DNA of 57,849 bases from Stx2-converting phage Stx2a_WGPS6. This document shows, piece after piece, positions 3,001 to 6,000 of the stretch (the first letter of the stretch is position 1; the number at the start of each line of letters is the position of its first letter). Position numbers: made by a program. The DNA lies in the sequence record AP012539, one strand, 5' to 3'.

Positions 3001-6000
3001 CATATCTGAGAAATGGACATAAAAAAGCCGCATGACTGACGGGTGCGGTTTCCGCTTTGCAAGGTGTGTTCAGCACCATGAAGCGGAATATAGCCCCGTT
3101 AATGCGGATTTGTCAAATCATGTGGTCTTTATCTTGCTGTAAGCCGCGCCATTCGGTCTTTTCCCCCCAGATTTGGGGAAAACTATCTTGTCAAAATCAT
3201 GCAGCCTTTCGTTCTCCTTCGATGAGTTCCTCGATCTTGTGCACTCCCGCCTCGTTGTAGCGAAATGTCTCGACCTGCTTGTCACTGTGCGCCGATTTGT
3301 CGATGAACCACTTCCCGTACTTTTCTGTTTTGAGCATGTAGGTGTTGGCAATGCGCCCTACCTTGTTGGCTGAAATGCCAAGCATGGTGCCAACCTCCGA
3401 CGCAGAGTAGTGATGTTCATCAATGACCGGAAGAGGGATTGCACTAAAGCCGACGACGGGATTAATCAGGCTGGCGGCAACGACCTGTTTAGCTTCCGGT
3501 GCGAGGTGAGGGAGGAAGTCGAAGAGGTCTTTCATTGTGTCGACGGTCATTTTCAATGCGCGTGCCTTACGGAATTCTTCAAGGCCATCCGGTGATTTCT
3601 TCGTGGTCGTTTTTTGTTGCAACTGCTGTTGCATTGATTCAAGTTTGTCGACCAGCGAACGACGGACGGCTTTCGACTCACGTGCGGCGACGCGCAGGGC
3701 TTGCTTGTAGGTCATCACTATAACCACCTGATCCGCTCCGCCTTTTTTCTTATCCATGGGGGTTACGAAAATTTCGTAACCCTCCCCCTCAAGCTCATCT
3801 TTGATGCGTGCAATGAAGTCGTTGTTGCGTACTTCTTTTTCACCGCACAGTCTCCGCGCTTCATTCACCATTTTCAACAGAGCCTGGCTGTCGATAGTTC
3901 CATTTTTCATTACATTATTTTTCATCGTTTTAACCTCTCAAGCTCGCCGTAGCGAGTTCAGATAAAAGAAATCCCCGCGAATGCGAGGATTCTTATTCAC
4001 CTTTGACGGCAAGTTGCAGGTTAGCCACGGTTAACCTCCTGCGGCGGTTCTGGTAGCGGCATCCAGTGTGACGGTTTCCACGACGCACCAGGAATTATCC
4101 ACCCATCATTAGCGTCAGGATGCCCCGGGATGTAAGTAGCCCATTTCATTCGCCAGTCACCTTTCCTGTCAAACTCCACGGCAACAAGAACGGCTGTTTT
4201 GGTATTCGGCATTCGCTCACTACAGCTTATCCAACCATCCGGAGTTACCGGAGAGTTGCCAGCCTTGCGCATGGCAATCTCCATGATTTCAACCATATCT
4301 CCTGGTGGAATTTTACAATGCTGACCAATATGCCTCTGCTGCCTGGCATATTCGAGGATGTGCTCCAGCTTGATACGATTAATCATGATTTATCTCCCTG
4401 AAGCATGGCTTCGCGGCAGTCGTTCCAGCCTTCAGCATAATCACTATACGCAAGAGGCCAACCGTTTCTGTATTCACGCGGCAACTTATCAGGCACTACC
4501 AGCGCTGGCGGCGCGGAGAATAGTGGTTTAGGTGATATTTCCGCACGTTTTGCGTATGCTTCAACTGTGTCAGGGTTAAACAGGATTATGTTTTCACCGC
4601 ATTCTCACGCTATCGGTTCTGCTTCCAGCGATGCCAGTGCAATTTCATAAGCACGGCGCTCAATATTGTCTCGAACGTCCAAGCTGCCTATGCGCTCTTT
4701 GATTTCTTTAATCAGTTCTTTGTCGGTAATAGTGGTCATGCCGCGTTTCCTTCTTTCTTATTAACAATTACACCGTCATATATTTCATTAAGGTGCCCTC
4801 TCAACTCCATGCGCCTTAATGCAGACAACATGTAATCGCATTCAACCTGCTTATTTCCAGTAAATGGCTTATCGTCAGGATTACCCCAACAGCAATTACC
4901 CTTGGGCCACCCATGTACTTTCCGTACTCTTCCGTTAACAACGTGAAGTAATCCCCAGCCAGGTGGTAAATCCTCAATTGAAATAATTCCCGGCTCACTA
5001 ATAAAGAATCGCCAGTCGCCCATTCCAAGAGACGGATTTTTACGAAAACGCTTTTTTCTATCTGCCAACAAGTCAGCACGAGAACATTTCGCCAATCAGG
5101 CATGATGCTGAATTTCTGAATCCCATAGCATCTGGCTGTTCTCCGGTACTGGTTACAGCTATAAAGCGGTCATGAAAACAAACCTTGAAACCGTTGCGCT
5201 TAAGGAACTTGTACGCAATCTGACAGAGTTCGCGGTGTGTTAACGCCATATCACTCTCCTTTGATGCGAATGCCAGCAAGCCAGTTTCTTATGCCGATAT
5301 ATTCAGCGTTCCTGAAACCGCTTTTTACATATATAAATGGCAAGCGAAGATTGTGACCATTGACTGCCAGGTAGTCTTTACAACCCTGTTCGGTGAAACA
5401 GCAGGTAACGAATTCATCAATATCTTTCACAGCAACGCGCCGCCATTTTTCTGGTGGCTCTCGAAAGTTTTCATGAAGTAGCTCGAGACGACGACTATGG
5501 CGTTTATTGGCTTCATTGCCATCTTCGTCAACCCAGACAATCCGGTCATGGTCATAATCAGCATCAACAGCGATTTCGCGCTTTTGATACACACAAAACA
5601 TGGGATCTGACGTTATTCGATTGTCCTGTGTTCGAATATTTTCACCGATGATGCCAAACGAATCTGGTGCAGATTTTGTCTGCATCTCTTCGATACGTTC
5701 AGCCATCGCAGCACACTCTTCAAAGTTGCTTAATGCTTTTCGCTCCCATTCGGCGCATTGTTTTTCCAGTTCTGCTATGCGCTTACTTCCATCCGCGATT
5801 ACTCCCTCGTAATATTCACGCTGCTCGTTGAGTTTTGATTTTGCTGCTTCAAGCTCAACACGCAGCTTCCCAACCGTAAGCGCAATCCCCTCGTTCTCCT
5901 GGTCGCGGCGTTTGATGTATTGCTGGTTTCTTTCCCGTTCATCCAGCAGTTCCAGCACGGTAGCCGGGTTAGCCTCTGCTATGAATTCAGCGTTTGCATA

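Follow-up and report, generated by a model that had tools for sequence, protein, structure and literature searches.

The genome of the Stx2-converting phage Stx2a_WGPS6 (record AP012539) carries, on its minus strand, a 118-codon reading frame with an opal codon inside it. An earlier note on this DNA held that the frame was once one gene and offered three readings of the codon: a nonsense mutation in a pseudogene, a sequencing error, or a site of readthrough or recoding. Two separate small genes would be a further reading. Here, we ask which of these accounts for the frame, using the whole 57,849-nucleotide stretch of DNA (the window, to which all positions refer), related phages, and complete Escherichia coli genomes.

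Results

Layout of the reading frame

The frame occupies positions 4383 to 4739 and is laid out as the earlier note had described. It begins at ATG 4739-4737, continues through 44 sense codons (MTTITDKELIKEIKERIGSLDVRDNIERRAYEIALASLEAEPIA) to the TGA at 4607-4605, and then runs through 73 more in-frame sense codons. Its terminal TGA (4385-4383) overlaps the ATG (4386-4384) of the next gene, a DUF551 gene, as ATGA, and ATG 4739 is likewise overlapped by the TGA (4738-4736) of the upstream frame. The chance expectation for 73 open codons past a stop is roughly 3%, or (61/64)^73; what decides the matter is comparison with the intact, otherwise identical gene of EDL933, described below. The internal stop leaves a residual 44-codon open reading frame (ORF) at 4608 to 4739, identified by ORF scan and predicted to be the sole stretch with efficient translation, and an apparently silenced segment at 4383 to 4604 that comprises the 73 C-terminal codons and the terminal stop.

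The downstream part of the frame has no credible start of its own, because the nearest canonical in-frame start after the internal TGA is GTG 4496, 37 codons from the frame end. A separate gene for the C-terminal half was considered and rejected on this ground. No promoter or terminator that would split the frame into two genes was found inside 4383-4739, and a search for a second copy of the frame within the window found none. In phage 2851, the coding sequence annotated as the “C-terminal half” begins at a CTG codon (annotated coordinates mapped onto the 357-nt alignment).

Phage context and neighboring genes

As a Stx2-converting lambdoid phage, the window falls into the 2851/1717/F349/WGPS4 group. 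Over its first 25 kb, 83 to 88% of the length can be aligned with phages Stx2a_F349, 1717, 2851, and Stx2a_WGPS4 at 99.0% identity, and like these it opens with an integrase ORF (228-1406). The frame sits near int within the leftward early region, between an Ead/Ea22-like gene and int. On one side lies the DUF551 gene (4021-4386, minus strand; PF04448, E = 6.4e-22), whose ATG overlaps the ancestral stop and which has its own Shine-Dalgarno sequence, GGAG, 7 nt upstream of that ATG. A terminator-like hairpin on the minus strand (3992-3969), which is a consensus match only and consists of a 10-bp stem and a T-rich tail after it, is found 29 nt past the DUF551 stop and likely marks the end of a transcription segment. 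On the other side of the frame are the upstream neighbor (4736-5249, minus strand), which encodes 171 amino acids when intact, as in WGPS4, WGPS8, and 1717, and the Ead/Ea22-like gene (5251-6198; PF13935). The upstream neighbor is frameshifted in the window: two bases are missing between 5095 and 5094, position 5094 is T rather than A, and a 58-aa ORF (5249-5073) is left together with an out-of-frame remainder. The EDL933 annotation also carries the 58-aa remnant.

Two further genes lie on the minus strand between int and the DUF551 gene: an antirepressor gene with AntA and P22_AR_C domains (2241-2873) and a 242-aa ORF (3197-3925) that has no Pfam match. The antirepressor-containing segment (2241-3925) is present in strain F8798 and absent from phages 2851 and WGPS4. 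Farther along, a tRNA scan of the window located genes for Met(cat), Arg(tcg), and Arg(tct) at 23095-23344 on the plus strand, a trio typical of Stx phages.

Ancestral codon and protein family

E. coli O157:H7 EDL933 has a single coding sequence over the matching 357 bases, for a 118-aa protein (WP_000207903.1), and the window departs from it only in having TGA where EDL933 has TGG. The continuous TGG form is also found in WGPS8, VT1-Sakai, YYZ-2008, phi330, and phiSTEC801. By this comparison, the stop at 4605-4607 is Trp45 converted to opal through one G-to-A transition at window position 4605. A wide protein search returned 1644 homologs, all of them enterobacterial, and among the 120 representatives listed, 106 have Trp aligned at position 45; orthologs only rarely have Arg, Tyr, Glu, or Ser there. 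Divergent full-length homologs from phages cdtI, Stx2c_2409, and phi367 (50 to 56% identity) also have Trp at this position, and the HK022 homolog has Tyr. The intact protein matches phrog_5117 from end to end, with residues 1-117 on profile positions 1-125 of 125 (E = 5.6e-58). The EDL933 codon, the prevalence of Trp among the representatives, its presence in the divergent homologs, and the end-to-end profile match together indicate that TGG is ancestral and that one continuous protein is the norm for the family.

These orthologs bear out the claim that the frame was once a single gene, since all but one of its 357 bases recur in them, their codon 45 reads TGG, and a single 118-aa protein is annotated in each. 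The earlier note had left the sense codon to be settled by orthologs, and TGG (Trp) is the one that occupies the position. It had also named two separate orthologous genes with an independent downstream start as the finding that would overturn its one-gene reading; the orthologs encode a continuous 118-aa protein instead, and of the three readings that it offered, the nonsense pseudogene is the one supported.

The 118-aa protein has no Pfam match at E <= 1. We therefore rejected its assignment to DUF551 (PF04448), which only the downstream gene at 4021-4386 fits (78.6 bits). The matched PHROG families are of unknown function. A Foldseek search of the AlphaFold model against the PDB gave no match (best E = 4), and a search against viral models gave only one match at E <= 0.001; the closest models are unnamed or uncharacterized proteins. 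The gene itself belongs to the poorly understood stretch that separates the exo-xis block from int, which in lambda and Phi24B is reported to affect lysogenization and induction.

Two side observations concern the family at large. Codon 45 has changed a second time, independently, from Trp to Arg (AGG) in cluster P0007 (L014:1501-1872), where an otherwise identical 261-nt segment is joined to a different N-terminal module. We considered whether this Arg codon is a pseudoreversion of the stop and rejected the idea: AGG can be reached in a single step from TGG but not from TGA, so the cluster gives no sign of the stop having been rescued. Several other family members (P0016, P0086, P0039, P0075, P0093, P0095, and P0111) bear names that are implausible for a small phage family, such as “Valyl-tRNA synthetase” and “dTDP-6-deoxy-L-hexose 3-O-methyltransferase,” and these look like propagated misannotations.

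Frequency and distribution of the TGA allele

A miscall would likewise show up as one base differing from an intact allele, and the TGA could accordingly be a sequencing or assembly error in this record, with TGG in the real phage. However, the same TGA occurs in 2851 (an isolate from Germany), in F349 and WGPS4 (proviruses of Japanese-named O157:H7 strains), and in 1717, and the change is a substitution at a nonhomopolymer site. Within the phage collection, these four carry the exact TGA allele, while VT1-Sakai, YYZ-2008, Stx2a_WGPS8, phi330, and phiSTEC801-Stx1a carry the exact TGG allele. Among 5426 complete E. coli genomes, the segment is present in 545 records (537 genomes); the exact TGA form is found in 109 of these records and the exact TGG form in 365, which places the frequency of TGA at about a fifth of segment-carrying records. 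These counts come from shifted 81-base probes; the first probes were confounded by short partial matches to a common N-terminal module. Four phages sequenced independently of one another and 109 complete E. coli assemblies have the allele, which is evidently genuine and inherited. An error confined to this record is thus very improbable, and sequencing error can be struck from the readings that the earlier note had offered.

The nonsense allele is common and already known, being labeled as such in public records. Gene 05 of Stx2a_WGPS4 is annotated as “hypothetical protein (pseudogene),” the phage 2851 annotation names EP2851_05 and EP2851_04 as the “N-terminal half” and the “C-terminal half,” and PGAP flags an internal stop in E. 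coli F8798 (E4U69_RS09605) and CV261 (FEL12_RS27495). O157 or cattle-associated strains make up the sampled TGA carriers, and TGG is also found in O145 and O111. TGA was found only in copies exactly like that of the window, whether the 357-base gene (five genomes) or the 81-base probe (109 E. coli records) is considered. Of the 109 records with TGA, no fewer than 81 contain an exact TGG copy as well, a lower bound derived from identity bands [284 = (365 - both) + d, where d >= 0]. This second copy presumably resides in another prophage, where it could complement the broken gene or act as a donor or recipient for gene conversion.

Recoding and readthrough at the internal UGA

Selenocysteine insertion at the UGA, or reassignment of UGA to an amino acid, would also present as a bare in-frame UGA with a long stretch of open codons behind it, and this arrangement is all that speaks for either. 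The orthologs have Trp at the position, not Cys or selenocysteine. No SECIS-like hairpin follows the UGA, and a search of 4250-4900 against Rfam, SECIS models included, at E <= 10 yielded no match there, only two chance-level viral matches elsewhere in that stretch. The 81 nt from the UGA fold unremarkably (z = -1.57), with 17 of 200 shuffles folding as well. Neither a tRNA with a UCA anticodon (an opal suppressor) nor a selenocysteine tRNA is encoded in the window, where the Met(cat), Arg(tcg), and Arg(tct) genes are the only ones. TGA also serves as the stop codon of the frames on either side, of the 118-codon frame itself, and of many other genes of the same phage, and the E. coli host uses the standard code. 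For these reasons, selenocysteine insertion, code reassignment, and programmed readthrough are without support, and the first two are effectively refuted. The possibility of a readthrough or recoding site and the downstream stem-loop or SECIS element that might have betrayed it, both raised by the earlier note, find no backing in these searches or in a stop that is not conserved across the family.

Unprogrammed readthrough is a separate matter. In E. coli K-12 reporters, Trp-tRNA competes with RF2 for UGA and misreads it at a level of about 2% at 37 C and about 4% at 25 C (PMC10570021). With Trp as the ancestral residue, such readthrough of the internal UGA would restore a little authentic wild-type protein. 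Termination at UGA is probably more efficient in natural E. coli isolates than in K-12, which carries the Thr246 variant of RF2, and natural O157 hosts probably show less readthrough than that strain.

Haplotypes of the surrounding module

Across 1054 bp (window 4207-5260), eight genomes vary at only three sites, and each of these disrupts a gene. At 5094-5095, replacement of “AGA” by “T” frameshifts the upstream 171-aa gene; at 4845-4849, an independent 5-bp deletion frameshifts the same gene; and at 4605, the G-to-A change, which is the sole difference within the 118-codon gene, introduces the internal TGA. Five haplotypes result. The upstream gene is intact with TGG at codon 45 in WGPS8 and intact with TGA in WGPS4 and 1717; it carries the 5-bp deletion with TGA in 2851 and F8798; and it carries the 2-bp frameshift with TGG in EDL933 and with TGA in the window and CV261, the last of which has TGA within an EDL933-like prophage context.

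Among the eight genomes, the 5094 indel and the 4605 single-nucleotide polymorphism (SNP) therefore occur in all four possible pairings, a pattern that implies recombination between prophages or recurrent mutation. Since every variable site disrupts a gene and the upstream gene has been broken by two independent indels, constraint on the 1-kb module appears to be relaxed. Relaxed selection on the 118-codon gene would fit both the frameshifted neighbor and the intact copy held elsewhere by most TGA carriers. The TGA allele is found alongside either state of the upstream indel and in differing prophage settings, which can be explained by hitchhiking and gene conversion, although neutrality is not thereby proven.

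Position of the stop relative to the N-terminal module

The 44 residues that precede the stop constitute a module, MTTxTDKELIKEIKERIGSLDVRDNIERRAYEIALASLEAEP(V/I)A, that is a mosaic unit common to several PHROG families. The window's 44-aa ORF covers profile positions 1-48 of phrog_5117 (E = 2.6e-21) and on its own matches phrog_5117, 660, 60, and 3323. In other phages, the module is fused to various middle segments or C-terminal parts, including DUF551, and DNA homology with some relatives ends within a few bases of codon 45. Because this 44-residue segment is joined to different C-terminal parts in relatives, the premature stop appears to coincide with the boundary of a recombination module. 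An AlphaFold model of an intact representative, of moderate quality (pLDDT 75.6, pTM 0.46), places helices at residues 6-19 and 25-39, such that residues 6-39 are predicted to form a self-contained helical hairpin, and assigns Trp45 to the first strand of the next small beta/alpha unit.

This coincidence raises the question of whether the truncation is functional, with the TGA kept because the free 44-residue hairpin is active, either alone or with a few percent of readthrough protein, much like the leaky two-product stop of Qbeta A1. Both the exact boundary that the stop shares with a module found in four PHROG families and the self-contained hairpin of the predicted structure would suit such a product, and the TGA is present in more than one haplotype and context across its 109 complete E. 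coli records. Reading of UGA by Trp-tRNA at the level of K-12 reporters, about 2 to 4% (PMC10570021), would moreover recreate the exact wild-type protein. Yet the stop is not conserved, no stimulatory RNA structure is seen, the neighboring gene is also decaying, and an intact copy is present in most carriers. The event also appears to be recent, as TGA copies (in five genomes over 357 bases and in six over 1054 bp) are otherwise identical to TGG copies, and natural E. coli, which lacks the Thr246 variant of K-12 RF2, probably stops at UGA better than K-12. On balance, we consider a functional truncation unlikely. The same low probability attaches to its fullest form, in which the W45-opal allele would be a selected leaky truncation that frees the 44-residue peptide plus a trickle of full-length protein and thereby tunes an early-left function in Stx2c-type O157 phages. 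Were this so, the tuned function might be the control of lysogeny or induction.

Discussion

The evidence points with high probability to a naturally occurring nonsense allele, W45*, of a small nonessential accessory gene; the allele probably arose recently, spread both clonally and by recombination, and persists because the gene is dispensable or covered. One G-to-A transition at window position 4605 turned TGG (Trp45) into TGA. By this account, translation from ATG 4739 would end after 44 residues and release only the N-terminal helical-hairpin module, the 73 C-terminal codons would fall silent, and 218 untranslated bases would separate the premature stop from the DUF551 ATG. The ATGA hand-over of ribosomes into the DUF551 gene would then be lost, leaving that gene reliant on its own GGAG site. 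A recent origin is suggested by the lack of other changes in about 1 kb. The allele would have spread clonally and by recombination between coresident prophages in O157-type E. coli, and it may persist either because the gene is dispensable or because an intact copy in another prophage covers for it. Whereas the mutation, its ancestry and frequency, the lack of recoding signals, and the decay of the neighboring gene are shown by the sequences, the loss of translational coupling, the relaxed selection, and the low-level supply of wild-type protein through tRNA-Trp misreading of UGA are inferred. The label “pseudogene” may overstate the loss, as the 44-aa product could keep some activity given that the stop falls at the exact end of a module that recombines as a unit. 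The allele's fair frequency, about a fifth of segment-carrying records, also weighs against this account, as does its presence in several haplotypes and prophage settings.

The frame should be annotated as one pseudogene (W45*), not as a pair of small genes. The A/G difference at window position 4605 offers a simple SNP marker for telling apart sublineages or recombinants among the Stx phages of O157-type E. coli, and together with the frameshifted neighbor it suggests that the int-proximal accessory module of these prophages is in decay or can be dispensed with. Beyond annotation hygiene, the allele has little significance, and nothing follows from it for Stx biology.

The closest known counterparts of the window's frame are the alleles annotated as pseudogenes or internal stops in WGPS4 (gene 05), 2851 (EP2851_05/EP2851_04), F8798, and CV261, which share the same 357 nt, TGA included, with no within-gene difference, and which are likewise placed between ead/Ea22-like and DUF551 genes. 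The window joins the TGA with the 2-bp upstream frameshift, as in CV261, and with the Ant-containing int-proximal segment, as in F8798; the full combination occurs in none of WGPS4, 2851, F8798, and CV261. The intact WP_000207903.1 allele of EDL933, VT1-Sakai, YYZ-2008, Stx2a_WGPS8, and phi330 has 356 of the 357 bases and the same ATGA overlaps with both neighbors but differs in having TGG (Trp45) and encoding one continuous 118-aa protein.

More distantly, the frame resembles the mosaic EaA/Ea22/DUF551-type accessory proteins of the exo-xis-to-int region in lambdoid phages, such as P22 EaA, HK022 gp36, and cdtI gp35, with which it has in common the N-terminal module and an AEGWNxCRxAML motif; their function is likewise unknown. 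Many of these relatives have their modules fused to a C-terminal DUF551 domain, whereas in the window DUF551 is encoded by its own overlapping gene, and no Pfam family matches the 118-codon frame. The internal stop also recalls leaky UGA stops read by tRNA-Trp, such as that of Qbeta coat/A1 and the background readthrough of UGA in E. coli, since here too a UGA in an E. coli phage mRNA stands ahead of a long open frame. The natural near-cognate reader of UGA is tRNA-Trp (PMC10570021). In known cases of programmed readthrough, however, the stop and its extension are conserved and the extended product is required, whereas the TGA of the window is a recent polymorphism of a Trp codon without a conserved signal.
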